From Actinomycetes bacterium (GTDB lineage: Bacteria; Actinomycetota; Acidimicrobiia; Acidimicrobiales; RAAP-2), in NCBI GenBank assembly GCA_021809995.1, contig JAJZJT010000001.1, positions 721-64,720 of the forward strand: 64,000 nucleotides of DNA, read 5' to 3'. The notes under the pieces were generated by a model. That model searched no databases. It worked only from the letters and a program-made list of their open reading frames with translations, and was not told where the DNA came from. Every line of letters begins with the position of its first letter. The stretch's first letter is position 1. Of this stretch, positions 9,742 to 55,853 are shown piece after piece. The position numbers and the translations under genes were made by a program.

Positions 9742-9749
9742 CGATCTAC

Positions 9750-9772
9750 GCCGACCGGCATCGCCGGTCGGC
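9750..9772 (+). terminator. perfect 10-bp stem / 3-nt loop hairpin 9 nt after the MBL stop
   Basis: GCCGACCGGC-ATC-GCCGGTCGGC. Confidence 0.45.
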
Positions 9773-9923
9773 GACGCACCGAGCACGTAGGGGCTTCCAT
9801 CCGATCGGCGTAGGGGAGCCTGGTGCCCGGCGTGTGAGCGCCCGCTCGCCCGGAGCGGAGCCGAGGCGGAACGAGGTGGCTGTCGTCAGCGGCGGGGCCA
9901 TGGTTCGATGAGGCCGGACGGGG

Positions 9924-17578: not shown

Positions 17579-19123
17579 TCAGACGTGCGACTGCTGCCCC
17601 GCCCAGTACCGGTCGCGCAGCACTCGCTTGTAGAGCTTTCCGGTGGGGAGCCTCGGCAACTCGTCAAGGAATTCGAAGCGCCTTGGGCACTTGAAGTGGG
17701 CGATCCGCGCCCTGGTGTAGCGGTGGAGCTCGGCCTCGAGCTCGGGGCCGGGTTCCACCCCTTGCGCCGGTTGGACCACGGCGAGGACCGACTCGCCCAT
17801 CTCGTCGTCGGGCATGCCGATGACGGCCACGTCGGCCACCTTGGGGTGCAGTGCCAGGCAGTCCTCGACCTCCTGCGGGTAGATGTTGACCCCGCCGGAG
17901 ATGATCATGAATGCTTTGCGGTCGGTGAGGAACAGCCACCCTTCGTCATCGAGGTAGCCCACGTCTCCCAGGGTGGTCCATCCGTGACCGCCGGGGTCCT
18001 TGACGCTGGCCGTCTTCTCCGGGTCGTTGTGGTACTCGTACTCGGGACCGCCGCCGAAGTAGATCGTGCCCGCCTCTCCCGGCGGGAGCTCGTTGCCCTC
18101 GTCGTCGAGGATGTGGACCTCGCCGATGAGCGGGCGGCCCACGGTGCCAGGGCGCTCGAGCCACTGGTGCGGGTCGACGAGGCAGAAGCCGTTGAGCTCG
18201 GTCCCGGCGTAGTACTCCCACAGGACCGGGCCCCACCACTCCATCATCCGCTGCTTCACCTCCACCGGGCACGGGGCGGCGGCGTGGACGGCCACCCTCA
18301 TCGACGACACGTCGTGGGCGAGGCGCTCGGCGTCGGGCAGCTTGAGCATGCGGACGAACATGGTCGGGACCCACTGGGAGTGGGTGGCCCGGTGCTGCTC
18401 GACGAGCCGCAAGGCCTGCAGCGGGTCGAAGCGTTCCATGACGATCACCGTGCCCCCGAGGGACTGCACGCCGAGGGTGAAGCCGAGCGGCGCCGAGTGG
18501 TAGAGCGGCGCCGGCGACAGGTAGACGCTGTCGCGGTCCATGGAGAAGACGCCGCCGAGGAGGGCGCCGATGAGCATGCCCTCGCCGATCGACTTGCCCG
18601 ACAGCGGCCGCTCGATGCCCTTCGGCCGTCCGGTGGTGCCCGACGAGTACAGCATCATCTCCCCGGCGGGCTCCTCGTCGAGCGGCGCCGACGACATGGC
18701 CGCCACGGCGTCCACGTAGGGCTCGAACCGCCGGTCCGCCTCGCCGATGAGCAGCGGGAGCGACACGTCCGGGGTCTGCTGCAATGCCTCTGCCGCGGCG
18801 TCCGCCCTGGCCGACGTGGTGACCAGGGAACGTGCCCCGGAGTCGGCGATGATGTAGGCGACCTCGTCGGGCGCCAGGTAGCTGTTGATGGTGGTGACGT
18901 ACAGGCCCGAGCGCAGCGCCGCCCACATGACCTCGAAGAACCGGGCCTGGTTCTCGCTGAAGATGGCGACATGGTCGCCCGGTGACAGCCCGTGGGCCTG
19001 CCACAGCCGCGCCAGCTGGATCGAGCGGCGATCGAGCTCGGCGTAGGTGACGACCTCACCGGTGCCGCCCATGACGACAGCCGGCTTGTCGGGCGTGGTG
19101 ACGGCGTGGGCCCCGGGGTACAC
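17579..19123 (-). CDS. acyl-CoA synthetase (AMP-forming, FadD-like)
   Basis: AMP-binding motif YSSGTTGRPKG, plus C-terminal GKLYKRVLRD. Confidence 0.85.
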   Translation of the reverse strand: MYPGAHAVTTPDKPAVVMGGTGEVVTYAELDRRSIQLARLWQAHGLSPGDHVAIFSENQARFFEVMWAALRSGLYVTTINSYLAPDEVAYIIADSGARSLVTTSARADAAAEALQQTPDVSLPLLIGEADRRFEPYVDAVAAMSSAPLDEEPAGEMMLYSSGTTGRPKGIERPLSGKSIGEGMLIGALLGGVFSMDRDSVYLSPAPLYHSAPLGFTLGVQSLGGTVIVMERFDPLQALRLVEQHRATHSQWVPTMFVRMLKLPDAERLAHDVSSMRVAVHAAAPCPVEVKQRMMEWWGPVLWEYYAGTELNGFCLVDPHQWLERPGTVGRPLIGEVHILDDEGNELPPGEAGTIYFGGGPEYEYHNDPEKTASVKDPGGHGWTTLGDVGYLDDEGWLFLTDRKAFMIISGGVNIYPQEVEDCLALHPKVADVAVIGMPDDEMGESVLAVVQPAQGVEPGPELEAELHRYTRARIAHFKCPRRFEFLDELPRLPTGKLYKRVLRDRYWAGQQSHV

Positions 19124-23391: not shown

Positions 23392-24642
23392 TCAGCGCTC
23401 CGATCGCGCCGGCACCGTGTTCTGCGGCAGCGCTCGGAACGGGGTGTCGGGCGGCGGCCCGGGTTCCCTGGGCAGACCGAGCACCCGCTCGCCCACCACG
23501 TTCCGTTGGACCTGGTCGGTGCCGCCGAAGATCGAGGGGGCCGGCGAGAACAGGATGAGCTCCTGCCACATCCCCCCGCCCGGCGTGTCGGGCCCGGTGA
23601 CGGTGGCGTGCATGCCGAGGATGCGGGCGGCCACGTCGCGGGCCAGGCGGACGACATCGCTGTTGCGCAGCTTGGCCACGTTCCCCTCGCCGCCCGTCGC
23701 CGCCTGGCCGGACTTCATCCGCGCCAGATGCCATTCCGTAATCTCCACCAGGCCGTAGAGGCGGGCCAGGTCCTGGCGCACCGTGGCATCAGCCAGGCGG
23801 GCCCGTTGGCGCGCCAGATCGACCAGGGCCCTGACGCGCTGCCGGCTCACCATGCTCTCGTCGATGACTGGCCGGGCCTGCCCGAACGATCCGGCGGGGC
23901 GATCGAGATGGCCGGCCACCGTGCCGGGCACCGCCGCGCTCGGGGCGGCCACCGTCGCGCCGCCGATGCCCATGCGTTCCACCATCAGCGTCGTGCTCGC
24001 CACCCGCCATCCGTCGCCGACCTGGCCGATGACGTTGGCGTGGGGCACGCGGGCGCCTTCGATGAAGACCTCGTTGAAGATGGCTCGGCCCGTCATCTCG
24101 CGCAGCGGGCGCACCTCCACGCCCGGCTGGCGGACTGGGAAGGCGAAGTAGGTGATGCCGCGGTGCTTGGAAGCGTCGGGATCGGTGCGGGCGATGAGGA
24201 TGCCGTAGTCCGCGTATTGACCCGTCGAGGTCCACACCTTCTGGCCCGTCACCACCCATTCGTCCCCGTCGCGTTCGGCTCTCGTCAGCAGTCCGGCCAG
24301 GTCGGACCCAGCCCCCGGCTCGGAGAAGAGCTGGCACCACCCATGGCTGCCGTCGAGGATCCTCGGGACCAGTGTCTCCACCAGCTCGGTGGAACCATGG
24401 GCCAACAGCGTCGGAACCGCCAGCATCATCCCGATGCCGCTGGGCGGCCCCAGTGCCCCTCGGCGGGTCATGGCGCGAACCAGCTCCACCGTCTGCTGCC
24501 GGTCCCACTGCCTTCCGTAGGGCGGGGCCAGCATGGGAGCCGAAAGGCGCGCCTCGGCCAGGCGTTGCCACCAGGCGCGGACGGCGAGATCGGGGTCCCA
24601 ATTGGCGTCGAGCCACTGGTCGACGTCGAGCTCCGTGGTCAT
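23392..24642 (-). CDS. acyl-CoA dehydrogenase
   Basis: ATG at 24642 is preceded by GGAGGA. ACAD blocks WCQLFSEPGAGSDLAG and GGTDQVQRNVVGERVLGLP. Confidence 0.85.
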   Translation of the reverse strand: MTTELDVDQWLDANWDPDLAVRAWWQRLAEARLSAPMLAPPYGRQWDRQQTVELVRAMTRRGALGPPSGIGMMLAVPTLLAHGSTELVETLVPRILDGSHGWCQLFSEPGAGSDLAGLLTRAERDGDEWVVTGQKVWTSTGQYADYGILIARTDPDASKHRGITYFAFPVRQPGVEVRPLREMTGRAIFNEVFIEGARVPHANVIGQVGDGWRVASTTLMVERMGIGGATVAAPSAAVPGTVAGHLDRPAGSFGQARPVIDESMVSRQRVRALVDLARQRARLADATVRQDLARLYGLVEITEWHLARMKSGQAATGGEGNVAKLRNSDVVRLARDVAARILGMHATVTGPDTPGGGMWQELILFSPAPSIFGGTDQVQRNVVGERVLGLPREPGPPPDTPFRALPQNTVPARSER

Positions 24643-27840: not shown

Positions 27841-28575
27841 GGTGACGAACGCGTCGGCATCCCTCGGCCGACCGACCTGTCCCGCTTGCTCGAGATCGCC
27901 CTGGTCCTGGTCCGAAACGGGCTGGTCACCGCGGGGAGTCGATCGGTGGCATTGGCTCGCCGACCCCACCGTCAGACGCCGCGCACGCTGGCCGTGGCCC
28001 TGCGCCGGGCCTTTTCCGAGCTGGGTCCCACCTACGTCACGTTCGGACAGCTGAGCGTCTCCACACCCGACTTGTTCCCGCCGTTCCTGGCCGCCGGACT
28101 GCGCCGGCTCCTCGACGGCGTGCCTCCCGAGCAACCGGGGGTCGTGCGCCGGGTGATCGAACGCGAACTGGGGCGAGGCATCCACGAGCTGTTCGCCTCG
28201 TTCGACGACGCGCCAGCGGCGGCGGCCTCGGTCGCCCAGGTGCACCAGGCGGTGTTGCACGGCGGGACGGTGGTGGCGGTCGAGGTCCGCCGGCCCGACC
28301 TTCGGCGGCGCGTCGAGCAGGACCTCCGCCTGTGGCCCTGGTGGCGGAGCATGCCGGTGCCGTCGGCCACGTCATCAGTCCCGTCGCCGTCGTGGACCAC
28401 CTGGCCGCCACCGTCCGCTGGCCCGGATGATCCTCGACCGCGCTGCCCGAGACCGTCGACGGGTGTTCATCGGGCCGGACGTGCAGCTGGTCAAGGTCCT
28501 GGCCCAGCCACCGCCCGGCGTCTTCCAGAACGCCATCGGCCTCGGCGCCTGGCTCGGCACCCGCGTGGGCAACTG
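27841..28575 (+). pseudogene. ABC1/UbiB/AarF atypical-kinase gene, N-terminal third only, with at least 2 frameshifts
   Basis: Contains LRRAFSELGPTYVTFGQLSVSTPDLFPP...ASFDDAPAAAASVAQVHQAVL...VAVEVRRPDL...DLRL. It continues in another frame (LVAEHAGAVGHVISPVAVVDHLAATVR) after a 1-nt insertion near 28333, then shifts again. The kinase core is absent. No clear start codon. Confidence 0.55.
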
Positions 28576-28582
28576 AGGGCCT

Positions 28583-28683
28583 CTACGACCGCGCCGGCTC
28601 ACCCTCGAGGTGCGACTGCAGACGCTGCGCATCGTCGTTGAGCTCCTCCACCATCTCGAGGACGAGCCGGCCCGACGGCTTGA
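28583..28683 (-). pseudogene. nitronate monooxygenase (NMO-like FMN enzyme) fragment 3 of 3: C-terminal tail
   Basis: The minus strand reads IKPSGRLVLEMVEELNDDAQRLQSHLEGEPARS-stop. Confidence 0.4.
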
Positions 28684-28958
28684 TCGCGTTCGGCGCCCTC
28701 GGGCCGCCGCCCGGTCACCTCATCGAGCGGGCCCATGGTGCTGGCGTCGCGGTGACCGCCCTGGCCGGGACCGGCGCGCACGCACGGCACCACGCCCGGG
28801 CTGGCGCCGACCTCGTCGTGGTCCAGGGGACCGAGGCGGGTGGGCACACGGGCCTAGTCGCCACCATGGTGCTGGTCGCCGAGGTAGTCGATGCAGCGGC
28901 ACCCACCCCGGTGCTGGCGGCCGGTGGCGTCGCCTCGGGGCGCCAGCTTGCCCATCCG
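28680..28958 (+). pseudogene. NMO-like fragment 2 of 3: central FMN-binding segment, on the opposite strand
   Basis: The plus strand reads LIAFGALGPPPGHLIERAHGAGVAVTALAGTGAHARHHARAGADLVVVQGTEAGGHTGLVATMVLVAEVVDAAAPTPVLAAGGVASGRQLA. Confidence 0.6.
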
Positions 28959-28959
28959 A

Positions 28960-29376
28960 TGGGAACGCCACGTCCAGCAGCGAGGTCATGCTCGCCAGAT
29001 CGATCCGCATGCCGGCGAGCTCGCCAGTCCCGTCCTCGTGTGGCGCCGACGGCACGCCGTACTGGCCGAGGAGGTCGTCGAGCCACTGCCGGTGGGCTTC
29101 GGGGACCAGCTCCCGCAGGCCGCCCGGATCGAGCCCGCCCTGGTCGGCGCCGACGTACTTCTCGGGGATCAACAGGTCGACGCCGTATGGGCGCCCGTCG
29201 GTCGCATCCTCGATCCAGGCCAAGTCCGTGTCGAGATGCTCCGGGTTGTGGGCCACGGCACCGAGCACGCCCATACCGCCGGCCTTGGAGACGGCAGCGA
29301 CGACGTCCCGGCAGTGGCTGAACCCCAGGATGGGGAACTCGAACGCGCAACCCTCCTGTTCAGTTGGCCGGTCCAC
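28960..29376 (-). pseudogene. NMO-like fragment 1 of 3: N-terminal segment
   Basis: The minus strand reads FEFPILGFSHCRDVVAAVSKAGGMGVLGAVAHNPEHLDTDLAWIEDATDGRPYGVDLLIPEKY... The candidate GTG start at 29376 overlaps the MBL gene 3' end. Confidence 0.6.
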
Positions 29377-30550: not shown

Positions 30551-30878
30551 ACATATACCGTACTCTGTATCTCGCACGGCGTCGGCAGGGCGGAACTCCA
30601 TCCGGTCCGGCCAGCCCCTTCGGGCCCGCAGCCCTCGCTGCTTCCCGGTCAAGGGGTGATCCGGGCGCTCCAGGCCCGGACGCTCGGCGACGAGGACGAG
30701 GTCACTGGCCGGTAGCCCGACATTGTGTTAAAGGGCTATCCGTCTGAGTACAGTGGCCGCAAGATCTAGGGGTTCACGAGGCACCCCCAGCGGGTTGCTT
30801 TCTTCTCCAGGGTCGTTGCGGTCGAGGTCCTGCCAAGGACTCGGCAGCAACACGCTTGAGGTTGTCCCGGTCGTCGAT

Positions 30879-30949
30879 TGCGGTAGGGACCGCCCTTGCG
30901 GGCGGCCCCCCGCACAGATCCGAGCGTGCGGGACTACCGCACTCGGCTC
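30879..30949 (-). ncRNA. group II intron domains V and VI
   Basis: DV (30917-30949) is GAGCCGAGUGCGGUAGUCCCGCACGCUCGGAUC, with an AGC triad, a 9-bp lower helix, an AC bulge and a 4-bp upper helix. DVI (30879-30914) has a GCAA tetraloop and a bulged A at 30884, 7 nt before the 3' end. Confidence 0.7.
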
Positions 30950-32421
30950 CCACCTCGGGTGTTGGCGGCGAAGCGCACCTCAGGGTATGGGTGCAGGACT
31001 TTGGCGGGCGGGAGCCACCGCTTCTCCAGGCGGTCCATCCGAGCCCAGTTGAGTCGGGTTCGCTGACTCCGGCGCCGAAGCGCCTTGAACCAGTGCCGGA
31101 CCACTTGCAGCCGGAACGCCATCACTGCGGAGATGTTGCCGGGAACGGCGTAGTAGGCGAAATGACCACGCACCACGCTTGCCAGCCACATCCCTTGGAC
31201 CGGAATCGGCTCATGCCGGCGGCGCTTCAGGAGGACTTTGATCTCCTTCAGCTTTGCCCTCATGCGCTTCGAGATGGTGATGCGCTTGAGGAAGAAACGT
31301 CCGTCACGGGTCTTCGCACAGATGTGTGTGAACCCGAGGTAGTCGAACGTCTCCGGCCTCCCCAACCGACGCTCCGCACGACGCTCGGCGGCAAAGCGGC
31401 CGAACTGGATGAGGCGCGTCTTGTCGGGGTGCAGCTCCAGCCCGAACGTCGCGAATCGCTTGCGAAGGTCGTGAAGGAACCGCAGTGCATCACCTCTGTG
31501 CTCGAACCCGACGACGAAGTCGTCGGCGAACCGCACGAGCATGACCTCGCCGTCCGCCGTCTTCCTCCACCGTCGTGCCCACCGGTCGAAGACGTAGTGG
31601 AGGTAGACGTTGGCGAGCAACGGGGAAGCCGATGCCCCCTGGGGCGCTCCCCTCTCGCTCGCCGTCCACTTCCCGCCCTCGATGACGCCTGCGCTCAGCC
31701 ACTTCTCGATGAGACGCAGGACCCGCTCATCTGCAATCCGATGCTCGAGGAACCTTCTCAACCACGTCCGGTCAAGCTGACCGAAAAAGTCGCGAATGTC
31801 CGCATCGAGTATCCAGTTCACCTTCTTCCGCTTGATCCCAACCGCCAGCGCATCGAGCGCATCGTGGGGCTTGCGCCCCGGCCGGAACCCGTAGGAGAAG
31901 CCGCAGAAGTCCTCCTCGTAAATGGCGTTCAGCACCTCGACGACGGCCCGTTGGACAATCTTGTCCTCCAAGGCAGCGATGCCGAGTGGCCGCTGCCTGC
32001 CGTCCGCCTTGGGGATGTACACCCTCCGGGAGGGCTTCGCTCGGTAAGCACCGCTGTGCACCCTGGTGAGCAAGTCCTCCAGATTGGCTCGGAGGTCCTC
32101 GCCATAGGCGTCCCACGTCACCTGGTCCACTCCGGGTGATGCCTTCGGGTTGATCGCCACGTAGGCGGCCCAGAGGCGGGAGAGGTCGACGTGGTGCAAC
32201 AGCGCCGTGAACCGTGCGTCCTTGTCCTTCCGTGCTACTTCTCGCACACGGTCCAACCCGCTTGGCACGCCTTGCCCGGCTCTGTGTCCGGGACGTGTCA
32301 GGTCGTCCGTGTTCCCCTCGGTCAGGCCCCTTCCCTCCACCACCTCCGCAGCCGGTCGCCCGGCGTTGTTCGGCGACTTCGCAGGTAGTACGGGCCTGTC
32401 TGACTTCCCAGGATCGTGCAT
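30934..32421 (-). CDS. group II intron reverse transcriptase/maturase (IEP)
   Basis: RT blocks RRVYIPKADGRQRPLGI, GAPQGASASPLLANVYL and LVRFADDFVVGF (an FADD variant of YADD), plus an X/maturase domain (FDYLGFTH, GHFAYYAVPGN). No HNH/En domain. Confidence 0.9.
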   Translation of the reverse strand: MHDPGKSDRPVLPAKSPNNAGRPAAEVVEGRGLTEGNTDDLTRPGHRAGQGVPSGLDRVREVARKDKDARFTALLHHVDLSRLWAAYVAINPKASPGVDQVTWDAYGEDLRANLEDLLTRVHSGAYRAKPSRRVYIPKADGRQRPLGIAALEDKIVQRAVVEVLNAIYEEDFCGFSYGFRPGRKPHDALDALAVGIKRKKVNWILDADIRDFFGQLDRTWLRRFLEHRIADERVLRLIEKWLSAGVIEGGKWTASERGAPQGASASPLLANVYLHYVFDRWARRWRKTADGEVMLVRFADDFVVGFEHRGDALRFLHDLRKRFATFGLELHPDKTRLIQFGRFAAERRAERRLGRPETFDYLGFTHICAKTRDGRFFLKRITISKRMRAKLKEIKVLLKRRRHEPIPVQGMWLASVVRGHFAYYAVPGNISAVMAFRLQVVRHWFKALRRRSQRTRLNWARMDRLEKRWLPPAKVLHPYPEVRFAANTRGGSRVR

Positions 32422-32882
32422 CTCAGGCGTGCGGCCTCGGCCTTCCCTGAGCGGCCCGCCCGCTGTTCACACAGGCGGACAATCCTGGGACCTCCCGGTT
32501 CTCGCGCATGAAGATTCCGTACATGCCATGGTTCTCCGACCGCGCGGGGCCCGACTGCGACTCGCGATAGCGCCACAGCCGGTGTTGCCTTCCGCCATTC
32601 CAACGGCGTGGGCGCCCCGGACTCACCTCATTTCGCGGCTCAATAGCCCGGCCTGCACGTGCCCCTGTCAACGCTTCGCCTGCGCCCTTGCGGGTGCCGA
32701 CGCATGACTCGGGGTCATCGTGGGTCGCTACTCCTTCGATGTAGAGCGCTTTCATCTCCTTCTTCATGCCGGTTTATCCCGGCGCACTGGAAGTTGAGGT
32801 GGCGGTCCCCCGCCTGGTGCCTGCCTGAGTGGTAGGTGTCGGGCGTCCGCCAAGACGACCCACAGACAAGGGGACCACCACG

Positions 32883-34180
32883 ATGAAGGACTACCAGACG
32901 ATCGAGACCGACGCGGCGATCCCGCTGCCGGAGAGCGTGCGCCTGGCGATGGAGGACATCGCCGGGGTGATGCGAGAGGGGCTGCTGGCGATGGCCGTGT
33001 CGGCTGGGTTGGGGGTGATGACGGCGTTGATGGAGGAGTCGGTGACCGCGGTGGCCGGCCCGAAGGGCAAGCACCTGCCCGGTCGGCGAGCGGTGCGCCA
33101 TGGCAGCGAGGACGGCTCGGTCACCCTCGGGGGACGGCGGGTCCCGGTGCGCCGTCCGAGGGTCCGGGCCGCCGATGGCTCCGGTGAGCTGCCCGTTGCG
33201 GCGTATGAGCTGTTCTCCTCCACCGATCTGCTCGGTCAGATGGCGTTGGAGCGGATGCTGGCCAAGCTGTCATGCCGCCGCTACCCGGCCGGGCTGGAGC
33301 CGGTCGGCGCCGAGGTGACCGGCCGGGCCCGGTCGACCTCGAAGTCGGCGGTCTCCCGCCGCTTCGTCAAGGCGACCGAGACCGCCCTGGCCGAGCTTTT
33401 GGGCCGGGACCTGTCGGGGTTGGACCTGGTGGCGTTGATGGTCGACGGGGTCCACTTCGGCGACCATCTCTGCGTGGTCGCTCTGGGGATCGGCGTCGAC
33501 GGCGTCAAGCACCCCCTCGCCGTGGTCGAGGGGGCGACGGAGAACACCACCACGGTCACCGACCTGCTGGTCGGTCTACGCGACCGGGGCCTGGACGTTA
33601 CCCGGCCGATCCTGGTCGTGATCGACGGGGCGAAAGCGCTGCGCTCGGCCGTCGACACGGTGTTCGACACCCCCATCGTGGCTCGCTGCCAGCTCCACAA
33701 GATCCTAAACGTCCAAGCCAAGCTCCCCGACCGGATGGCCGCCACCGTCGGGACGAAGATGCGCGGCGCCTACAAGCTGGCCAACGCGTTGGAGGCCGAG
33801 GCGATCCTGGCCGAGCTCGCCCGCCAGCTCGACCGGTCCCATCCCGGCGCGGCGGGCTCCCTGCGGGAGGGCCTGGCCGAGACTCTCACGGTGATGCGCC
33901 TCGGGGTGCCCCCGACCCTGGCCCGGACGTTGCGTTCGACCAACGCAATCGAGTCGATGATCGAAATCTGCCGGGACCACTCCACCAACGTCAAGAACTG
34001 GCGGGACGGGACCATGGCCCTGCGCTGGTGCGCCGCCGGCATGGCAGAGGCCGCCAAGCAGTTCCGCCGAGTCAACGGACATCTCCACCTCCCCGCCCTC
34101 CGCGCCGCCCTCGAGGCCGAAGCGGCCCGACGCCGCACAACCGAGTCACACCCCCCGGCTACGATCAGAACGTGGCCTGA
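32883..34180 (+). CDS. IS256-family (mutator-type) transposase, probable late frameshift
   Basis: ATG at 32883. Blocks LMVDGVHF, VVIDGAKAL, RSTNAIES and FRRVNGHLHLPAL. The main frame has no stop before 34673, outside the IS. An alternative frame from about 34125 ends VTPPGYDQNVA-stop at 34180, which looks to me like a typical family C-terminus. Confidence 0.75.
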
Positions 34181-34379
34181 ACCAGCCACCGACCGTCACC
34201 GAAGTTCCACGGAACTCGGGACATCCTCGAGTCCTCCCCGGCGACCGGCGCTACTCCTTCCACAAGATGTAGAGCGTACTGTACTCAGACGGATAGCCCT
34301 TTTGTGTTATGATCGTCTCATTATCTCGCACAGCGGCGGGGGAACGGGCCGTCGCGACCGAACACCGGTGGGTTGCCGG

Positions 34380-34616
34380 CTAGGCTCCCCCGGCATTCAA
34401 GTGGTGTCGGGCGCCACCGACCGGGTGAGAAGGGCGCGGCACGACGACCATCGTCGTGGCCGGCGCCCAGGGCTTCTGGCACACCATCGTGACGTCAGCC
34501 TCCACGACCTGCGAGAAGGACGGGTCGACGGTGACGTCGCCGACGTTCACCGACGGCGAGCTCGTGTCGGCCAGCAGCACCACCGCCTCCGACCACATCA
34601 CGCTGGACGCCACCAC
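34380..34616 (-). CDS. hypothetical small protein (last ORF of the DUF455 cluster)
   Basis: GTG GTG start 25 nt after the upstream stop. No recognised motif; it has only a vague resemblance to DUF59. Coding status is uncertain. Confidence 0.3.
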   Translation of the reverse strand: MVASSVMWSEAVVLLADTSSPSVNVGDVTVDPSFSQVVEADVTMVCQKPWAPATTMVVVPRPSHPVGGARHHLNAGGA

Positions 34617-34641
34617 GGTGCGGATCGAGCAGCGCCTGAGC

Positions 34642-34938
34642 TCAGACGGCGCGTCGGCGGTGCAGCGACATGATGGCGTCGAGGGCCTGAGCCTTGACCG
34701 CCGTCTCGCCGATGACTGCCAGGATGGGAGCCCCGGCCAGCTCTACGCTGTGCTGGTGCTCCAAGTACCGCCGCACCTCGCTGAGCACCTCGGGCACCGA
34801 TCCGCCTCGGAATTCGAAGTCGCCACCCAAGCGCAGCACGTCCGCCAGCGCCCCGTAGCCGCGCTGGCGCAGCCGTTGCTCGATGGCCAGCATCTCGGCC
34901 ACGGACTCGTCGTCGTAGGTACCAGCCGCGTCGGTCAC
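34642..34938 (-). CDS. hypothetical 98-aa protein, translationally coupled
   Basis: GTG at 34938 overlaps the upstream TGA (GTGA at 34935-34938). Balanced, non-shadow composition (SVAEMLAIEQRLRQRGYGALADVLRLGGDFEFRGG...). Confidence 0.5.
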   Translation of the reverse strand: MTDAAGTYDDESVAEMLAIEQRLRQRGYGALADVLRLGGDFEFRGGSVPEVLSEVRRYLEHQHSVELAGAPILAVIGETAVKAQALDAIMSLHRRRAV

Positions 34939-35714
34939 CCGGCGACCACACCCCCCGCCGACGCGGCCGATGCCGCCTGGCGCCGCTGCCGCAGGGCGGC
35001 ACCCAGCACGGCGCGGGGGGGCATGCCGATGCGGGGCCGGCCGCCCAGCGTCTCCTCGCCCGCCACACCGCCCGCCTTGACCAGCAGCACGTCGAGGTGG
35101 GTCTGCCACTTCCCCGCCCTGGTCCGGAGCTTGGCCGTGCGGGCAAGGTCCTGGACCATCATCTCTCCGCAGATGAGCTGCTCGATGTCGTCGTCGATCA
35201 TGAACTTCAGGATCCGCACCGTGGGTGCGTCGACGATATCTGACGTGACGCGCTGGTGGTAGCTGTACACGGCCAGCAGGTGCGGAACGAGGACCCGGTA
35301 GATGCCCACCAGCTTCTCGATGGTGGCGTCGGCGGCCTCCGGGCTGGTGAGCTCGTCCATGAATTCGATGAACGCGTCATTGGGCGGTTCGGCCCGGGCC
35401 TCGTCCTTCTCGCGCAGCTCGGGCAGCCGCTGCCGCCACAGATCGGCATGCCAGGCGTGCTGGTAGCAGTGCGGACCCAGCATCGCCTTCACGTCGAGCT
35501 CGGGGATGGTCGCCACCCAGCCACCGATGGCGGCCGACAGGTGCTGCTCGGCCCACTTGTAGTGCACGATGCGCTGCACCGACTCCTCGACCGTCCACTC
35601 CCCCATCAGGCGCCGGCGGTCCCAGTAGGGGAAGGGCTGAGCCAGGCGGCCCGGTCCGTACCCCCGGACCGGGCCACCCCCGTTGGCGTGTGCATCGCTC
35701 CGGCTGGCGGTCAC
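34935..35714 (-). CDS. helical ferritin-like / haem-oxygenase-like partner protein (unknown family)
   Basis: GTG at 35714 overlaps the upstream TGA (GTGA at 35711-35714) and is preceded by AAGGGGCGGAG. Contains HYKWAEQHL and YQHAWHADLW helices. Confidence 0.6.
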   Translation of the reverse strand: MTASRSDAHANGGGPVRGYGPGRLAQPFPYWDRRRLMGEWTVEESVQRIVHYKWAEQHLSAAIGGWVATIPELDVKAMLGPHCYQHAWHADLWRQRLPELREKDEARAEPPNDAFIEFMDELTSPEAADATIEKLVGIYRVLVPHLLAVYSYHQRVTSDIVDAPTVRILKFMIDDDIEQLICGEMMVQDLARTAKLRTRAGKWQTHLDVLLVKAGGVAGEETLGGRPRIGMPPRAVLGAALRQRRQAASAASAGGVVAG

Positions 35715-36589
35715 CTCCGCCCCTTGACCTTGGGAGCGGCGCCGGCCACATCGGCGATGTCCTGGTCGGTGAAACCCGCGAGCTTTCGGAACTCGATGGC
35801 GAGCGGCAGGAACTGCTCGGTGTTCGCCCCGTCGTAGGCACCGCGCAGACCCCCGAGGCTGAACGCCCGGTCCACCTTGCGCTGGAAGTTCACGATCTTG
35901 GCACGCCGCTCGGGGTCGTCCGCGGTCAGCGCCTTCGACCACACCTGGCCGAAGCGCACATGGGTGACCTCGTCGGCCGACACGTAGTCGACGGACTTCC
36001 AGATGGTGTCGTCGTCCGCGGACCGGCCGAAGCGAATGGTGTCGTTGAACACGTCGAGAGCCAAGCCCTCGAGGCACCGGTTCACCCCGACCACCCGCTC
36101 GGCCGGGTCATCCGAGCAGCCGAACTCGAAGAGGAACAAGTTTTCGGCGAACTCACCGATGTCACACCCGACGTGATCGAGCAGGGCGGAGTAGGTCTCG
36201 ACGTGCCGGGTCTCGTCCCAGCATTGCCTGGCCATGTCGAACTGGAACTTCCAGGGCAGCTCGTCGTCGTCCGTGAAGTCCCAGGCGCTGCGGCCCGCCG
36301 CCTCGAGGGCCTGCATCTCACCCATGAAGATGCCGTGCATCTGCGACTTGATGAAGACCGGGGCGTCGTCCTCCTCCGGGCGGACGCGGCGGAAGATGTT
36401 GGGTCCGCCGCCACCGGCCGACTGCTGCTCCAGCGTCTGGCGCATCTCGTCGTTGCCGAGGAGCATCAGCATCGTCTCCTCGACCTGTTCGACAGTGACC
36501 TCCTCGGCCATCAGGAAGTCGAGCGGTACGGGCGTGCGCCGGAACCGCTCGTCGCGGGCGAGGTCATCGGTGGTCATCAGTTTCTTCAC
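35711..36589 (-). CDS. DUF455-type ferritin-like diiron-carboxylate protein
   Basis: E...ExxH...E...ExxH ligand pattern: MGEMQALE, CWDETRHVE, RCLEGLALD and SADEVTHVRFG. The overall layout matches my memory of DUF455 (PF04305). Confidence 0.7.
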   Translation of the reverse strand: MKKLMTTDDLARDERFRRTPVPLDFLMAEEVTVEQVEETMLMLLGNDEMRQTLEQQSAGGGGPNIFRRVRPEEDDAPVFIKSQMHGIFMGEMQALEAAGRSAWDFTDDDELPWKFQFDMARQCWDETRHVETYSALLDHVGCDIGEFAENLFLFEFGCSDDPAERVVGVNRCLEGLALDVFNDTIRFGRSADDDTIWKSVDYVSADEVTHVRFGQVWSKALTADDPERRAKIVNFQRKVDRAFSLGGLRGAYDGANTEQFLPLAIEFRKLAGFTDQDIADVAGAAPKVKGRR

Positions 36590-36631
36590 GTGTCCTCCTG
36601 TACGGTGCGCCAGATAGTCTGCACGGGTACG

Positions 36632-36973
36632 TCAGGTGCTCCCCGGCGTCACCGGATGGTGCTGTGACATGTCCGGTTGGTCCGGCTCCTGTTGCCACGC
36701 CGCGAAGAGGAACGGGCGGTTCGACCCCCGGACGCCGGTCGCCCGGGGGTCGTCCATGGGCACGATCGCGCCCACCGGGCACGGGTCGAGACAGCGTCGG
36801 CAGCCCGGGCACTTGGCCCCGTCGACCACGTACTCCAAGTCGTTGGCCATGAACACGGCATCGTAGGGACAGACGCGCTCGCACATCCCGCACTCGATAC
36901 ACCCGTCGACGATGACGTACGGGGCGCCGCGCCTGCGGGTCATCCGGCGTTCCACACTACGCATGATACTCAT
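36632..36973 (-). CDS. 2x[4Fe-4S] bacterial-type ferredoxin with a C-terminal extension
   Basis: Two CxxCxxCxxxCP motifs: CIECGMCERVCP and CPGCRRCLDPCP. Confidence 0.8.
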   Translation of the reverse strand: MSIMRSVERRMTRRRGAPYVIVDGCIECGMCERVCPYDAVFMANDLEYVVDGAKCPGCRRCLDPCPVGAIVPMDDPRATGVRGSNRPFLFAAWQQEPDQPDMSQHHPVTPGST

Positions 36974-36994
36974 CTAGTCAGATGTTTCAATTGT

Positions 36995-37016
36995 GGTACC
37001 GTGGCGGCCCGGTAAC
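36995..37016. promoter_or_regulatory. imperfect inverted repeat GGTACCG-N8-CGGTAAC in the 53-bp ferredoxin/TetR divergent region (candidate operator)
   Basis: 6/7 palindromic arms. This is the only intergenic DNA between the divergent genes. Confidence 0.25.
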
Positions 37017-37026
37017 ATGACGGGCA

Positions 37027-37728
37027 GTGATGCAGCTCCGTTGGGGCGAAGAAGTCCCGTCCGACGCCGAGGCGGCACGAGCACGTCTGGTCAATGCGGC
37101 CGAGGAGTGCTTCAGGCGCTACGGTGTGGCCAAGACCACGGTCGACGACGTTGCCGCGGCAGCAAAGGTCTCCCGTGCGACGGTCTACCGGTACTTCGGG
37201 GACCGCGACAAGCTCGTCCTCGGTGTGGTTCTCCGCGATGCCCGGCGTTTCCTGAACCGTTTGGGCACCGCCATCGAGCGCCAGGACACGTTCGAGCGGG
37301 CCGTCGTCCAGGGCGTGCTCTCCACCGTCGATGCCGCGCGTGCCGACGAGAGCCTGGGGCTGCTGTTCGCGCCCGACACGATCGGCATCACCACCTCCAT
37401 CGTCGGCGCGTCCGAAGCACTGTTCGATCTGGCCTCCGACTTCATGCGCCCCCTCCTGCGTGACGCTCAGCGTCAGGGGCTCATGCGGACCGACGTGCAG
37501 CTCGACGAGGCCGCCGAGTGGATCCTGCGCACGATCATCTCCCTGTTGACCGTCGAGGGGCCCCGGCGCCGGAGCCCGGCACAGCAGCGCCGCTTCGTGT
37601 CGACCTTCCTGGTGTCCGCGCTGGTACCTGCCGCATCCTCCGACGCATCTGTCTCGCTCCAGAGCGACAGGGCGCCGCGGTCACGCCCTGCTCGGCGACC
37701 CAGGTCGGCTCGGTCCACCAACGCCTGA
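37027..37728 (+). CDS. TetR family transcriptional regulator (paralogue of 43524-44201)
   Basis: HTH NAAEECFRRYGVAKTTVDDVAAAAKVSRATVYRYF. Confidence 0.85.
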   Translation: MMQLRWGEEVPSDAEAARARLVNAAEECFRRYGVAKTTVDDVAAAAKVSRATVYRYFGDRDKLVLGVVLRDARRFLNRLGTAIERQDTFERAVVQGVLSTVDAARADESLGLLFAPDTIGITTSIVGASEALFDLASDFMRPLLRDAQRQGLMRTDVQLDEAAEWILRTIISLLTVEGPRRRSPAQQRRFVSTFLVSALVPAASSDASVSLQSDRAPRSRPARRPRSARSTNA

Positions 37729-42542: not shown

Positions 42543-43472
42543 ATGGTGATGCCGACAGCCGACACCGCAGGTGAGGCGCGGACGAGGCCCGGCTCGGCGC
42601 CGGCGTGGTTCGTCCGCGCCCTGTCCGATCGACCGCGGGCCGGCCGGCTGACGGTGGCTGGCGCCGGAGTCGCCCACGCCGTGTGGGGGCAGTGCGGGCA
42701 GCCCGGGCTGGTGCTGGTGCACGGCGGCGGGGCCAACCGAGCCTGGTGGGACCACATCGCACCCTGGTTCGCCGACACGCACCGGGTGATCGCCGTCGAT
42801 CTTTCGGGGCACGGCGACAGCGACCACCGTCCTGTCTACCGCATGGACACGTGGGTGGACGAGGTGTGGGCAACTGCACAGGCCGCCGGCGCCGGACCGA
42901 GACCGGTGCTCGTGGGGCACAGCCTGGGCGGGTTCGTGGCCGTGGCCACCGCCGCGCGCCACGGGCGAGACGTGGGGGGCGTCATCGTCGTCGACTCTCC
43001 CATGACGGCGCCGGACCACGAGCTCTCGTCGTCTGCCCTGCGGGTCGGCGGGCGAACGGGGACCGCCTACAGCAGCCTTGAGGAGATCGTTGCCCGCTTC
43101 CGCACGATCCCTCCCCAGGCGGTCTACCTCGACTACATCGTCGCCCACGTGGCCCGGCGTTCCGTCCGCCGTTTCGAGGACGGCTGGCGGTGGAAGTACG
43201 ACAGCCGGGTCTTCACCCAGTTCGCGGGGGGCATGCGGGCGTCGGCGCTGCCGCTGCTGGCCGATGTGCGATGCCGGTTCGCCCTGCTCGCCGCCGAGCA
43301 CGGACTGGTGACCCCGCGGATCGGTTCCGCCATATGCGACACGCTCGGGCGCTCGACGCCGGTCGTCTGGCTCCCGGACGCCGGCCACCATCCGATGCTC
43401 GACCAACCGCTGGCCCTGGTCAGCGCTGTTCGGGCCGTGCTCGCCGGCTGGGGCTCCTCCATCCCGCTCTGA
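42543..43472 (+). CDS. alpha/beta hydrolase
   Basis: LVLVHGGG, nucleophile elbow GHSLGG and C-terminal DAGHHPM. Confidence 0.85.
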   Translation: MVMPTADTAGEARTRPGSAPAWFVRALSDRPRAGRLTVAGAGVAHAVWGQCGQPGLVLVHGGGANRAWWDHIAPWFADTHRVIAVDLSGHGDSDHRPVYRMDTWVDEVWATAQAAGAGPRPVLVGHSLGGFVAVATAARHGRDVGGVIVVDSPMTAPDHELSSSALRVGGRTGTAYSSLEEIVARFRTIPPQAVYLDYIVAHVARRSVRRFEDGWRWKYDSRVFTQFAGGMRASALPLLADVRCRFALLAAEHGLVTPRIGSAICDTLGRSTPVVWLPDAGHHPMLDQPLALVSAVRAVLAGWGSSIPL

Positions 43473-43523: not shown

Positions 43524-44201
43524 TCAGCGATCGCGAGCCGAGGCGACCGGCCGACCACCGCGGCGGTGACCGGCCGGCGCCGACCCGGCTGTCGAACGCT
43601 CCACCAGGGCCGGAACCAGGAACGTGGCCAGCAGGCGCTGCTTGTCGGAGACGCCCCGGCGAACAGGACCCGTCACCGCGAGCAGCGACAGCACGGTTCG
43701 CAGGATCCACTCGGCAGCCTCTTCGACGTCGACGCCGGAGCGCAGCACGCCGTCGTCTCTGGCTGCTTGGAGCAGGGGGCGAAGGAACTCGGTGACCAGC
43801 GCGAACAGGGCATCCGAGGCGCCGGCGATGGCGGCGGTGATGCCCGACGCCTCGGGGGCGAACAGGCGCGCCAGGTTGTCGTCCGCCTCGACGGCGTCGA
43901 CCGTGTAGAGCACGCCGCGGATGAGGGCCTGTTCGAAGCTGGGCTCGGCGTCGATCACGGCCTGGAGCCGCCGGAGGAACCGCTGGGCGTCCCGTAGCAG
44001 GACGCCCAGCACCACGGCGTCGCGATCAGGGAAGTACCGGTAGACCGTGGCGCGCGACACGTGGGCGGCAGCGGCCACGTCCTCCACCGTGGTCTTCGCC
44101 ACACCCCGCCGCCGAAAACACCCCTCGGCTGCGTCCAGGAGCCGGGCTCGGGCCGCTTCCGTGTCCTTCGGGGCGTCGGACCCCCAGCGCATCTCGGGCA
44201 C
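43524..44201 (-). CDS. TetR family transcriptional regulator, divergent from the mce operon
   Basis: HTH DAAEGCFRRRGVAKTTVEDVAAAAHVSRATVYRYF. Collinear with 37027-37728 without gaps. Confidence 0.85.
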   Translation of the reverse strand: MPEMRWGSDAPKDTEAARARLLDAAEGCFRRRGVAKTTVEDVAAAAHVSRATVYRYFPDRDAVVLGVLLRDAQRFLRRLQAVIDAEPSFEQALIRGVLYTVDAVEADDNLARLFAPEASGITAAIAGASDALFALVTEFLRPLLQAARDDGVLRSGVDVEEAAEWILRTVLSLLAVTGPVRRGVSDKQRLLATFLVPALVERSTAGSAPAGHRRGGRPVASARDR

Positions 44202-54704: not shown

Positions 54705-55853
54705 CTACTGGTAGCGGATGACCCCACGGATGTTGGTGCCGTTGCGCATGTCCTCGTACCCCTCGTTCACCTGGTCGAGCGTGTACGTCGTGGTGACCAG
54801 CTCGTCGAGCTTCAGCCGGCTCTCCATGTACAGGCGCAGCAGCCGGGGGATGTCCCGGCGGGGGTTGGCGTTGCCGAAGATGCAGCCCACCAGCTCCTTG
54901 CGCTGCATGGCCAGATCGAAGAGGTTGAGGTCGACCTGTCCTTGCGAGATCGGCGCCACGGCCGTGACGACGGCCCGGCCCCCCTTGGCCACGAGTGACA
55001 GCATGGGCCCGATGAGCGCTCTGTCGGCCACGCCAGCCGTCAGGATGGCGCGTTCGGCATTCGCTCCCCATGTCAGCTCCCCCACCAGCGCCTGGGCTTC
55101 AGCCATGGAGGCTGCGACGTGGGTGGCACCGAACGTAGCGGCGCGTTCGCGCTTGGAGGCGACGGGGTCGACCCCGACGACGAAGCGGGCGCCGGCGAAC
55201 GCGGCGCCCTGCACGGCGTTCATGCCGACCCCTCCGAGCCCGATGACCACGACCGTGTCACCGGGCTCCACCGCCGCCGCGTTGACGGCGGAACCCCATC
55301 CGGTGGTGACGCCGCAGCCGACGAGGGCGGCCCGCTCCAGCGGGATGTCGTCGGTGATCTTGATGCAGCTGGCCTCGTTCACCACGGTGTAGGGCGCAAA
55401 GGTGCCCAGACAGCACATGAGCCCGAGGTCGCGCCCGTCCTTGGCGTGGTGGCGGGCGGTCATGTCCGATACCTGACGCCCGGCCAGCAGGAAGGCGCCT
55501 AGGTCACAGAGGTGCTGGCGGCCGCGTGCGCACGACGGGCACCGTCCGCAGGCCGGAATGAAGCTGAGGACGACGTGGTCGCCCACCGACAGCGAGATAA
55601 CGCCGGGCCCGACCTCGATGACCTCGCCGGCGCCCTCGTGCCCCCCGACCATGGGGAACTGCTCGATGCCGAGCAGGCGGGCCGTGTCGGGGTCGAGGAC
55701 CATGTCACCGGTCACCAAGTGTTCGTCGGAGTGGCAAAGGCCCGACGCTGCCAGCGCCACCTTCACTTCCCCGGAGCGCGGGTCGTCGAGATCGATGTCC
55801 TCGACGCTCCACTGCGCCCCTGGCTCCCAAAGGATCGCGGCACGGCTCTTCAC
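54705..55853 (-). CDS. zinc-dependent alcohol dehydrogenase
   Basis: GTG at 55853 is preceded by GGAGGA. Contains [16 protein letters not shown] and the Rossmann motif GLGGVG. Confidence 0.85.

Follow-up and report, generated by a model that had tools for sequence, protein, structure and literature searches.

The 64,000-nucleotide stretch of DNA analysed (the window) contains four genuine genes, coding for a ferredoxin, a DUF455 protein, a 259-aa partner and a 98-aa orphan protein, which form a conserved operon of Acidimicrobiia. A TetR-family gene diverges from the operon, and a composite mobile element bounds it on the other side. The features of the region are:

30730..34302, no strand assigned: composite IS256-family element with a group II intron, bounding the operon (inverted repeats and transposase)
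34380..34616, minus strand: 78-aa ORF, doubtful or strain-specific, outside the conserved module
34642..34938, minus strand: 98-aa orphan protein, putative gamma or effector subunit; GTG start overlapping the partner stop (GTGA)
34935..35714, minus strand: helical partner of 259 aa, a diverged DUF455 paralogue lacking a canonical diiron site, putative structural beta subunit; GTG start overlapping the DUF455 stop (GTGA)
35711..36589, minus strand: DUF455 ferritin-like protein of 292 aa (PF04305), putative catalytic diiron (alpha) subunit
36632..36955, minus strand: 2x[4Fe-4S] ferredoxin, first gene of the operon
36963..36990, minus strand: promoter-like site TTGAAA-16 nt-TATCAT, in the TetR/ferredoxin divergent intergenic region, upstream of the ferredoxin gene
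37027..37728, plus strand: divergent TetR-family regulator, probable operon repressor (TetR_N, E 4.9e-14)

Operon layout, promoter and boundaries

The order ferredoxin, DUF455, partner, 98-aa protein is found in the complete related loci of at least 14 other Acidimicrobiia genomes, with no shuffling seen, and the DUF455 and partner genes are joined by an ATGA or GTGA stop-start overlap in about three quarters of these loci. In the window, the GTGA overlaps noted earlier at both junctions (35711-35714 and 34935-34938) are directly visible. Judged from the sequence alone, the cluster has the features of an operon: one strand, a constant order, stop/start overlaps and a single upstream promoter.

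The first-pass annotation had described a cluster of five ORFs. Four of them are kept together in relatives; the 78-aa ORF is missing from all of these, and is no longer counted as a member of the operon. No homologue of it was found in about 90 related loci, including those of relatives with 83-87% partner identity, it matched no family, and its exact sequence is absent from a collection of 15 billion proteins, a 72-aa version being called only in Logan assemblies of the same strain. The ORF has a coding-like composition (GC1/2/3 = 0.67/0.51/0.91) and, given the GC3 of 0.91, could be either a gene private to this strain or a remnant. The 98-aa ORF, in contrast, is real, since a homologue (49-65% identity) directly follows the partner gene in every related locus of the same organization (type A). 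The family is small, with only 23 clusters among 5.8 billion, and has no Pfam model. The 98-aa protein gave no significant Pfam or PDB match, PaaB and MmoB included; PaaB was not matched by any of 26 relatives of the protein at E <= 10, and the PaaB structure 3EGR is absent from its PDB profile matches at the same threshold.

The ferredoxin is a short protein (about 100 aa) of the 8Fe type, carrying the motifs CIECGMCERVCP and CPGCRRCLDPCP. Its matches to Fer4_7 (E 3.4e-13), Fer4_9 and Fer4_21 all exceed the cut-offs, in line with the original description of a minus-strand 2x[4Fe-4S] protein with two CxxCxxCxxxCP motifs; the gene ends at 36632. No complete type A locus lacks the gene, which is always the first of the module and often overlaps the DUF455 start. 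Clostridial-type 8Fe ferredoxins are unusual donors among known soluble diiron oxygenases.

When promoter and start codon were aligned with those of relatives, the ferredoxin start was placed at GTG 36955 as the likely position (107 aa), with ATG 36943 as an alternative (103 aa, the form deposited as NCBI MDA8274011.1). The ATG at 36973 (113 aa), initially taken as the start, is disfavoured because the -10 element of the sole promoter-like site is located downstream of it, and relatives point to one of the two other codons. The TetR gene is divergent as reported, but the 53-bp gap assigned to the intergenic region is wrong as a consequence of the wrong start. The site at 36963..36990 is the only sigma-70-like one in the interval 34200-37200, where 0.2 would be expected, and relatives share a conserved TTGCGACA-N15-TGTAGTAT element located 7 nt ahead of the ferredoxin start, which leaves a short leader.

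On the opposite side, inverted repeats of 43 nt, 81% complementary (30730-30772 and 34260-34302), enclose a plus-strand transposase gene spanning approximately 32880 to 34120 (Transposase_mut, E 1.9e-25). The combination of a Mutator-type transposase and terminal inverted repeats identifies the element as a member of the IS256 family. A group II intron resides on the minus strand between the left repeat and the transposase gene (Rfam RF02005 at 32530-32752, minus strand, 192 bits; reverse transcriptase ORF at 30934-32421, minus strand). The element ends at 34302, 77 nt from the 78-aa ORF, practically the distance given before. The idea that it had severed the cluster from MBL-hydrolase and NMO genes did not hold, as the insertion is intergenic and neither gene lies downstream of the module in any relative; in the loci L001 and L002 an NMO gene is found on the other side of the module. 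Nor is the NMO gene of the window an intact one following on the same strand: it consists of two fragments in inverted orientation, and is a broken pseudogene.

The DUF455 protein and its partner

Of the five ORFs, the ferredoxin and the DUF455 protein were recognised in profile searches against Pfam and NCBIfam; the partner, the 98-aa and the 78-aa proteins matched no family. The 292-aa protein is a true member of DUF455 (PF04305, E 2.3e-20, residues 84-253, 73.6 bits against a gathering cut-off of 34.3), a family of single-gene ferritin-like proteins of bacteria and eukaryotes, from which it differs in being accompanied by a degenerate paralogue, a 98-aa protein and a dedicated ferredoxin. 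This partnership is not mentioned in the papers citing DUF455 that were examined, and, as the first-pass annotation had stated, none of these assigns a function to the family.

The full set of predicted metal ligands (E91, E126xxH129, E174, E207xxH210) is intact, and the six positions are invariant in 14/14 diverse sequences, which include type A, type B and fused forms and reach down to about 40% identity. In the AlphaFold2 (AF2) model each motif lies on one of four long helices (76-105, 113-139, 162-190 and 194-221). The top Foldseek matches of the model in the PDB are all ferritin-like (aldehyde-deformylating oxygenase or ADO, bacterioferritin, sMMOH, R2lox), with weak scores (E ~1e-2, TM 0.4-0.7), and the models themselves are of medium confidence (pLDDT 72 for DUF455, 77 for the partner). 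Both the ligand pattern and the predicted four-helix bundle place the protein in the ferritin-like diiron carboxylate class.

The partner corresponds in its 259-aa form to NCBI MDA8274013.1. The full length is supported by an invariant N-terminal motif (F28, W31, D32, R33, R34) located upstream of the shorter start used by JGI. The protein had been called all-helical, and its AF2 model is indeed a bundle of helices, similar to those of the T4mo beta subunit, TenA, CADD and ADO. No match to any known family was found in Pfam, NCBIfam or PDB sequences. The family has no Pfam model, yet is a large one: word-based searches gave 2244 matches, at least 1448 representatives or clusters are distinguished at 50% identity, and species-representative genomes contain no fewer than 567 loci.

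Sequence comparison indicates that the partner is a diverged DUF455 paralogue, a result new here. The two proteins align in register by hhalign over 134 columns (probability 52%, E 1.4e-4), and a DUF455 HMM matches partner domains, again in register, with iE values from 9e-7 to 3e-4. The Pfam DUF455 model weakly matches the partner domain of one relative (E 0.008), and the partner of the window not at all. The positions equivalent to the ligands are E56 (20/21), H86 (H/Q/D/C/L), H89 (mostly H), V143 (V/I/L/K/E), and D175 and E178, both variable. As the canonical positions are degenerate, the partner was classified as a degenerate paralogue, and not as an active DUF455 enzyme. Natural single-chain partner::DUF455 fusions were found among relatives, which makes an alpha/beta pair of the PaaA/PaaC kind likely; by this analogy, the partner probably pairs with the DUF455 protein as its structural subunit. 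The partner domain of one fused relative (P0362) has a sub-threshold match to Phenol_Hydrox (E 1.2e-4, 22.2 vs. 24.4 bits).

Gene neighbourhood and proposed function

Nine distinct related loci have a TetR orthologue (48-58% identity) no more than about 2 kb from the module, at variable positions (L001/L002, counted as one locus since their module coordinates are identical, L005, L006, L009, L010, L011, L016, L017 and L021). The P450, ACAD and AMP-ligase genes listed as neighbours are present in the window, and the lipid or acyl-CoA context is conserved next to the type A modules of relatives. The genes flanking the module differ between genomes, and include CoA ligases, ACADs, DUF35/thiolase pairs, ADH/ALDH, hydrolases, TetR regulators and LIV or Mce transporters. 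Among 79 ORFs beside type A modules, the commonest families are LIV-type ABC (6), AMP-binding and TetR (5 each), Thiolase_C_1 and ACAD (4 each), followed by 4HBT and OB_ChsH2 (3 each), Aldedh and SDR (2 each). A Zn-ADH or an alpha/beta-hydrolase gene comes directly after the module in several loci. No reductase was found within about 10 kb of the module, either in the window or in annotated relatives.

With roughly even chances, the operon is under TetR control and its four genes specify a soluble, heteromeric diiron enzyme that depends on the ferredoxin and activates O2. A diiron oxygenase of this composition, not described before, is a credible product of the operon; the oxygenase activity is what we infer. 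The DUF455 protein (alpha) would bind two irons through its six ligands, and the partner (beta) would be a non-catalytic scaffold for it, as PaaC is for PaaA. The 98-aa protein may be a third subunit, specific to the family, with a bridging or an effector role, and the 8Fe ferredoxin would pass single electrons from a reductase encoded elsewhere. The reduced diiron site would then activate O2, and hydroxylate or epoxidise a hydrophobic substrate derived from lipids. One candidate is a free alkyl compound, the alcohol product of which would be handed to the adjacent ADH, ALDH and CoA ligase; an acyl-CoA resistant to plain beta-oxidation is equally possible. The product would be processed further by ACAD, hydratase, SDR and DUF35-thiolase enzymes encoded nearby. 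Against this reading count the lack of a reductase gene in the cluster, the unusual type of donor, the medium-confidence models with their weak fold scores, the varying neighbours of the module and the ferredoxin-free relatives described below. The ligand of the dedicated TetR could reveal the substrate.

A wider reading is more tentative. Type A modules may be the first recognisable members of an independent, DUF455-based lineage of soluble multicomponent diiron monooxygenases. Its alpha/beta pair would stem from a duplication followed by loss of ligands, the gamma subunit would likewise be its own, and the donor would be an 8Fe ferredoxin; the oxygenation carried out, undescribed so far, would open a lipid, isoprenoid, steroid or alicyclic substrate to the beta-oxidation of Acidimicrobiia. 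If so, this would be the first reaction for DUF455, a family widespread in bacteria and eukaryotes, and the operon offers a minimal four-protein system for its study. Soil, freshwater, marine and wastewater habitats harbour abundant Acidimicrobiia, most of them uncultured, and little is known of how these bacteria break down lipids and hydrocarbons.

Known diiron systems and alternative readings

The first-pass annotation had seen in the cluster the logic of the Paa and bacterial multicomponent monooxygenase (BMM) systems, without their sequences. No Paa or BMM family was matched by the window proteins, and the layout of electron donor, catalytic, structural and small subunits is supported by paralogy, fusions and conserved overlaps and order. 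PaaA, PaaC and PaaB are the documented precedent for catalytic, structural and bridging subunits, PaaA and PaaC sharing one fold at 17% identity and the small PaaB-type bridging subunit being about 95 aa long (PMC4498308). By analogy of the genes alone, the operon would likewise combine a catalytic ferritin-like diiron subunit, a similar non-catalytic paralogue and a small subunit. Genes for CoA ligase, thioesterase, thiolase, hydratase and ALDH surround both systems, and actinobacterial paa clusters are also under TetR-type regulators. Unlike PaaABC(D)E, the operon has a free 8Fe ferredoxin in place of the FNR/[2Fe-2S] reductase PaaE, and no PaaD; none of its ORFs matched the PaaA_PaaC or PaaB families in Pfam or NCBIfam at E <= 0.1. 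The alpha/beta duplication seems to have arisen inside the DUF455 family, hence independently of PaaA/PaaC. If the pair did evolve independently of both PaaA/PaaC and the BMM alpha/beta subunits, it would be a further convergent case of an active plus a crippled paralogue among diiron oxygenases.

BMMs (sMMO, toluene-4-monooxygenase, phenol hydroxylase) similarly feature an alpha, a degenerate beta and a small subunit with a separate ferredoxin. The partner model weakly superposes on T4mo beta (TM ~0.55), and the fold matches of the DUF455 model include sMMOH. The subunits of the operon are about half as large, however, and BMM ferredoxins are of the Rieske or plant type, not 2x[4Fe-4S]; Phenol_Hydrox, MmoB/DmpM, Rieske or plant-type ferredoxin and FNR reductase were absent from the window proteins in profile searches. 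BoxAB (benzoyl-CoA epoxidase) is also a diiron oxygenase fed via 2x[4Fe-4S] clusters, but the operon encodes neither a BoxB-like protein nor an FAD/NADPH reductase domain, and the ferredoxin matches BoxA (E 2e-11, 43.5 bits against a cut-off of 459) through a generic Fe-S domain only. Box clusters have the CoA-ligase, ALDH and LIV-type ABC context seen beside type A modules.

The best-surviving alternative, itself unlikely, starts from the relatives that lack a ferredoxin. These are type B loci (partner, DUF455 and a 188-aa gene, the latter directly following the partner in a few loci with no DUF455 between) and fused forms, which are far commoner than type A and occupy syntenic, housekeeping-like sites next to genes for sigma-70, ABM, ABC1/UbiB-like kinase, NAD synthase, EF-P and aaRS. 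The ancestral role of the pair may thus not be catabolic. Like Coq7 or MiaE, the enzyme would hydroxylate or desaturate a molecule of the cell itself, be it a cofactor, a quinone, a lipid or RNA, and type A would be a ferredoxin-equipped version whose catabolic placement is incidental; an ABC1 kinase gene does adjoin type A in L001/L002, and a fragment of it remains in the window. Yet type A is a separate clade (partner identity 65-87% vs. about 50%) with its own ferredoxin, 98-aa subunit and TetR, lies repeatedly amid acyl-CoA catabolic genes in differing arrangements, and is present in two copies in one MAG (L013, L016), as is typical of catabolic paralogues.

Next in order, and on the unlikely side too, is a diiron enzyme other than a hydroxylase or epoxidase: an ADO-like deformylase, desaturase or oxidase acting on fatty aldehydes or acyl chains. 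Ferredoxin-dependent cyanobacterial ADOs, small soluble ferritin-like diiron enzymes working on lipid-derived substrates, are the best fold matches of the DUF455 model (TM 0.45-0.62; 4kvq, TM 0.50/0.62), and aldehyde dehydrogenase and Zn-ADH genes adjoin the module in several loci. Identity is only 15-21% and Foldseek E ~1e-2, however, and a shared fold does not reveal which reaction a small ferritin-like enzyme catalyses; no ADO match was found in Pfam or PDB sequences, and ADO is monomeric, acting without beta and gamma subunits.

It is improbable that the pair is a redox or iron-handling system, a peroxidase or ferroxidase like rubrerythrin or bacterioferritin, which receives electrons from the ferredoxin and has no organic substrate. 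Both models do have bacterioferritins, Dps and YciF-type proteins among their fold matches, and fused relatives show weak matches to Pfam Ferritin, but proteins of about 290 and 260 aa with extra helices contrast with cage subunits of 160 aa, and an enzyme better accounts for the asymmetry of active and degenerate paralogues, the TetR control and the acyl-CoA context. Least probable is a chance assembly in which the ferredoxin serves the P450, whose gene adjoins that of TetR both in the window and in L010, and the other three genes are unrelated passengers: most type A loci have no P450, the ferredoxin gene never leaves the head of the module, and actinobacterial P450s are usually paired with 3Fe-4S ferredoxins, not with the 8Fe type found here.

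Operon layout, start sites and promoter

The window DNA is high in GC, derives from an Acidimicrobiia-type MAG, and is identical to JGI Ga0373184_0000126 and NCBI JAPTVA010000017.1. Judged by its sequence and that of related loci, the locus is a real, conserved and as yet uncharacterised predicted operon of four genes, all four ORFs having the codon-position GC of coding sequence:

Ferredoxin: ends at 36632, minus strand; two CxxCxxCxxxCP motifs, Fer4_7 E 3.4e-13
DUF455 protein (putative alpha subunit), 292 aa: 35711-36589, minus strand; PF04305 E 2.3e-20, 73.6 bits (gathering score 34.3)
Partner (putative beta subunit), helical, 259 aa: 34935-35714, minus strand
98-aa ORF (putative gamma subunit): 34642-34938, minus strand

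Both GTGA stop/start overlaps reported in the first-pass annotation are present in the sequence. The five-ORF unit proposed there is reduced to four: the four minus-strand ORFs are confirmed and conserved, while the 78-aa ORF (34380-34616) falls outside the unit, having no family in Pfam or NCBIfam and no homologue by tblastn/tblastx in about 90 related loci, including relatives with a partner 83-87% identical to that of the window. Its exact sequence was not found in a collection of 15 billion proteins, and a 72-aa version is called only in Logan assemblies of the same strain. The GC3 is 0.91, and the sequence leaves open whether the ORF is a strain-specific gene or a remnant; tblastx/tblastn comparison with the hydrolase, ADH and thiolase genes found downstream in relatives, of which it might be a relic, gave nothing.

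The ferredoxin start earlier placed at ATG 36973 is unsupported, the promoter -10 element lying downstream of that codon. The sole promoter-like site within 34200-37200 is TTGAAA-16-TATCAT (36990-36963). An element TTGCGACA-N15-TGTAGTAT (extended -10) is strikingly conserved upstream of the ferredoxin in related loci (L001, L005, L007-L013, L016, L017, L021, L088-L090), and ends 7 nt before the start codon, which implies near-leaderless transcripts. The window copy is more diverged than those of the relatives. By register with these, the window ferredoxin would start either at GTG 36955 (107 aa) or at ATG 36943 (103 aa); NCBI and JGI both call the 103-aa form. The conserved promoter has ACA...TGT dyad character, and the dyad could overlap a TetR operator (the divergent TetR gene is at 37027-37728, plus strand); only a trivial 9-nt GC palindrome is present in the intergenic region, and no operator was defined.

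Two architectures and their gene neighbourhoods

The partner family includes 2244 word-based matches and 1448 representatives (50% identity, E <= 1e-3). At least 567 partner loci reside in species-representative genomes, the best 80 of these being all from Acidimicrobiia or Actinomycetota MAGs. Two architectures were defined by mapping the window proteins onto related loci. Type A has the order ferredoxin, DUF455 protein, partner, 98-aa protein, unshuffled in at least 14 complete loci, with partners 65-87% identical to that of the window. Where the DUF455 and partner genes meet, about three quarters of the complete type A loci have an ATGA or GTGA overlap; between partner and 98-aa gene the junction sequence is GTGA or TGATG. 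Nine distinct type A loci, the near-identical L001 and L002 taken as one, have a TetR orthologue (48-58% identity) no more than about 2 kb away, in varying position. In one MAG, MAG52 (JBHIXO01), two type A modules are present, each on its own contig (L013, L016), which suggests paralogous modules with different substrates. In locus L011 the DUF455 frame (9126-9992) has a premature stop at 9365 and the ferredoxin match is broken into two HSPs, a sign of gene decay or of misassembly.

Type B, the majority form, has the order partner, DUF455 protein, 188-aa protein, without ferredoxin or 98-aa gene (L022-L084, e.g. L003:8001-10465), and its partners are about 50% identical to that of the window. 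The 188-aa gene was found in 58 loci, sometimes followed by a 130-aa gene; neither protein has a Pfam family. In L023, L024, L051, L059, L068, L071, L076 and L080, no DUF455 gene is detectable between the partner and the 188-aa gene that comes after it.

The context of type A was monitored in 79 ORFs located within about 5.5 kb of ten modules. Acyl-CoA catabolic families recur among them, in line with the lipid-oxidation setting first suggested by the window alone.

Commonest families among the 79 ORFs neighbouring type A modules (number of ORFs)
LIV-type ABC transporter parts: 5-6
AMP-binding ligase: 5
TetR: 5
Thiolase_C_1: 4
ACAD: 4
4HBT thioesterase: 3
ChsH2/DUF35 OB: 3
ALDH: 2
NMO: 2
SDR: 2

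Immediately after the module comes an alpha/beta-hydrolase gene in L001/L002 and L085, and in L085 an ALDH gene stands immediately before the module; in L088 and L089 the next genes are a Zn-ADH and, after it, a CoA ligase. Mce/MlaE genes are near the module in the window contig and in L086. In contrast, sigma-70, ABM, ABC1 kinase, alpha/beta-hydrolase and NAD synthase families dominate among 101 type B neighbours, and ligase, ACAD and thiolase families are absent from the 25 most frequent families. The contrast indicates that the catabolic context is specific to type A. Type B is embedded in a syntenic block whose other genes encode a primary-like sigma factor, ABM monooxygenase, ABC1 kinase and NAD synthase. 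Genes in which partner and DUF455 protein are fused neighbour EF-P, aaRS, PfkB and DeoC genes, a housekeeping context which is uninformative and unconnected to lipid catabolism. The fused gene at L091:8001-9332 sits between PfkB-family and DeoC-family genes, with EF-P and tRNA-synthetase genes further upstream. That the module encodes a housekeeping modification enzyme is, in view of the type A context, unlikely.

The putative diiron subunit and its degenerate partner

The assignment to DUF455 holds, the alpha protein being a true family member by PF04305 score. Had the diiron ligands failed to align with the family, the oxygenase reading would have fallen; they align. No variation occurs at E91, E126, H129, E174, E207 or H210 when type A, type B and fused relatives (C-terminal halves) are aligned, nor at H85, Q122, D125 or D206. 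In the AF2 model (pLDDT 71.7) each of four long helices carries one ligand motif. A PDB sequence search found nothing significant. The best PDB fold matches, all ferritin-like yet weak (E ~1e-2, TM 0.4-0.7), are to aldehyde-deformylating oxygenases, followed by bacterioferritins, sMMOH and R2lox. ADO-like or desaturase chemistry, for all that ADOs head these matches, is a shade less probable than a housekeeping role, and a rubrerythrin- or ferritin-like redox protein, to which the bacterioferritin matches might point, is quite improbable. A merely coincidental linkage with P450 is scarcely credible. As had been noted, DUF455 is not known to have an established reaction: no functional study was found in the literature searched for DUF455, PF04305, IPR007402 or COG2833.

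The partner is, by profile comparisons, a degenerate DUF455 paralogue, which is a new result. Profiles of the two families align in register over 134-141 columns, with a probability of 32% for 20 sequences each, and of 52% (E 1.4e-4) for 77 versus 70 sequences. A DUF455 HMM built from the loci matches partner domains of relatives in the same register throughout (conditional E 9e-7 in P0362, 2e-5 in P0312, 3e-5 in P0296, 8e-5 in P0318), and the reciprocal search with a partner HMM matches DUF455 domains weakly. Pfam gives sub-threshold DUF455, Phenol_Hydrox and DUF892 matches in partner domains of relatives, no family in the window partner (Pfam and NCBIfam), and a PDB sequence search with the latter found nothing significant. 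For the partner, AF2 gives a helical bundle (pLDDT 76.7), whose best, weak, fold matches are TenA, the toluene-4-monooxygenase beta subunit, CADD, ADO and PaaAC. Conservation is lost at the positions equivalent to the ligands: most sequences retain E56 and H89, H86 is variable (H/Q/D/C/L), V/I/L/K stand in place of the third-helix Glu (E in one relative), and the fourth-helix ExxH is absent.

In natural single-chain proteins of 409-460 aa (P0318, P0349, P0362, P0380, P0382) an N-terminal partner domain is fused to a C-terminal DUF455 domain, the C-terminal halves matching Pfam DUF455 at 1e-9 to 8e-31. Taken with the conserved adjacency and the gene overlaps, these fusions speak for a physical alpha/beta pair. 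The motif GYGPxRHAQPFPYWDRRRL, N-terminal to the Met chosen by JGI, is conserved (F28, W31, D32, R33 and R34 are invariant); the 259-aa start, also called by NCBI, is therefore right, and the 223-aa JGI call too short.

The 98-aa family is narrow (23 clusters among 5.8 billion) and well conserved (22 invariant columns). Neither a Pfam and NCBIfam scan of the protein nor a PDB search with the family profile gave a significant match; 26 relatives gave only scattered chance matches (SesA, Smr) in Pfam at E <= 10, PaaB and MmoB/DmpM being absent even at this threshold. Kinship with the type B 188-aa or 130-aa genes was ruled out (blastp E 3.3). Its place in the gene order is what suggests a bridging or effector subunit.

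In the Paa epoxidase, PaaA is catalytic, PaaC is a structural paralogue at 17% identity, and PaaB is bridging (PMC4498308). The subunit logic of the window module is the same as in PaaABCE, and as in BMMs. Every sequence-membership test for the two families fails, hence the module is outside both, resembling them in logic and not in sequence, as the first-pass annotation had it. Its central reading, a candidate ferredoxin-dependent diiron oxygenase, is sound, and paralogy, fusions, promoter and the differing contexts of type A and type B now give it a better foundation. A TetR-repressed, short-leader transcript would yield ferredoxin and then alpha, beta and gamma subunits in coupled stoichiometry. 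The ferredoxin, itself reduced by a reductase encoded elsewhere, would reduce the alpha diiron site, and O2 activation would lead to hydroxylation or epoxidation of a hydrophobic substrate. Degradation would be finished by ADH, ALDH and ligase, or by hydrolase, DUF35-thiolase, ACAD and hydratase. The substrate may be either a free alkyl compound (alkane-hydroxylase logic) or an acyl-CoA (Paa/Box logic).

Mobile element, gene wreckage and other window genes

Downstream of the operon the window contains:

Composite IS256-family element: 30730-34302; 43-nt imperfect inverted repeats at 30730-30772 and 34260-34302
Group II intron: RF02005, 192 bits, 32530-32752; RT ORF 30934-32421, 495 aa, minus strand

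The repeats also enclose a Mutator-type transposase. The intron looks complete, and is inserted between the left repeat and the transposase gene. Short-read assemblies of the window strain all break at this element. It is intergenic and truncates no gene: the 78-aa ORF stops 77 nt short of one repeat, and MBL begins about 180 nt beyond the other. The idea that the element cut the operon off from MBL and NMO genes finds no support either, since no relative has MBL or NMO downstream of the module. Nor is the NMO gene intact: it is broken into two pieces of opposite orientation, residues 2-140 at 29370-28963 (minus) and residues 145-235, inverted, at 28677-28952 (plus), the rest missing.

Further homologues of operon neighbours lie elsewhere in the window: a second TetR gene (43602-44195, 61% identical to that of the operon), a second P450 (56040-56906, 38%), a second ACAD (23464-24624, 41%), an AMP-ligase (17582-19123, 66% identical to the ligase flanking the L002 module), a Zn-ADH (54711-55844, 41% identical to that following the L089 module) and an alpha/beta-hydrolase (42708-43214, 33% identical to that following the L085 module).

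The 596-614-aa 'transposase' ORF of JGI (32829-34673, plus strand) is over-extended, the Pfam match stopping near residue 413. Its Arg-rich tail passes the IS end, crosses the 78-aa ORF in antisense and enters the 98-aa gene, an open-frame artefact of high GC. Beside the NMO pieces is a truncated piece of an ABC1/UbiB-like kinase (aa 21-172), in a stretch of gene wreckage (27868-29370) where neither JGI nor NCBI calls genes. In L001/L002 the module is flanked by intact NMO and ABC1 genes.
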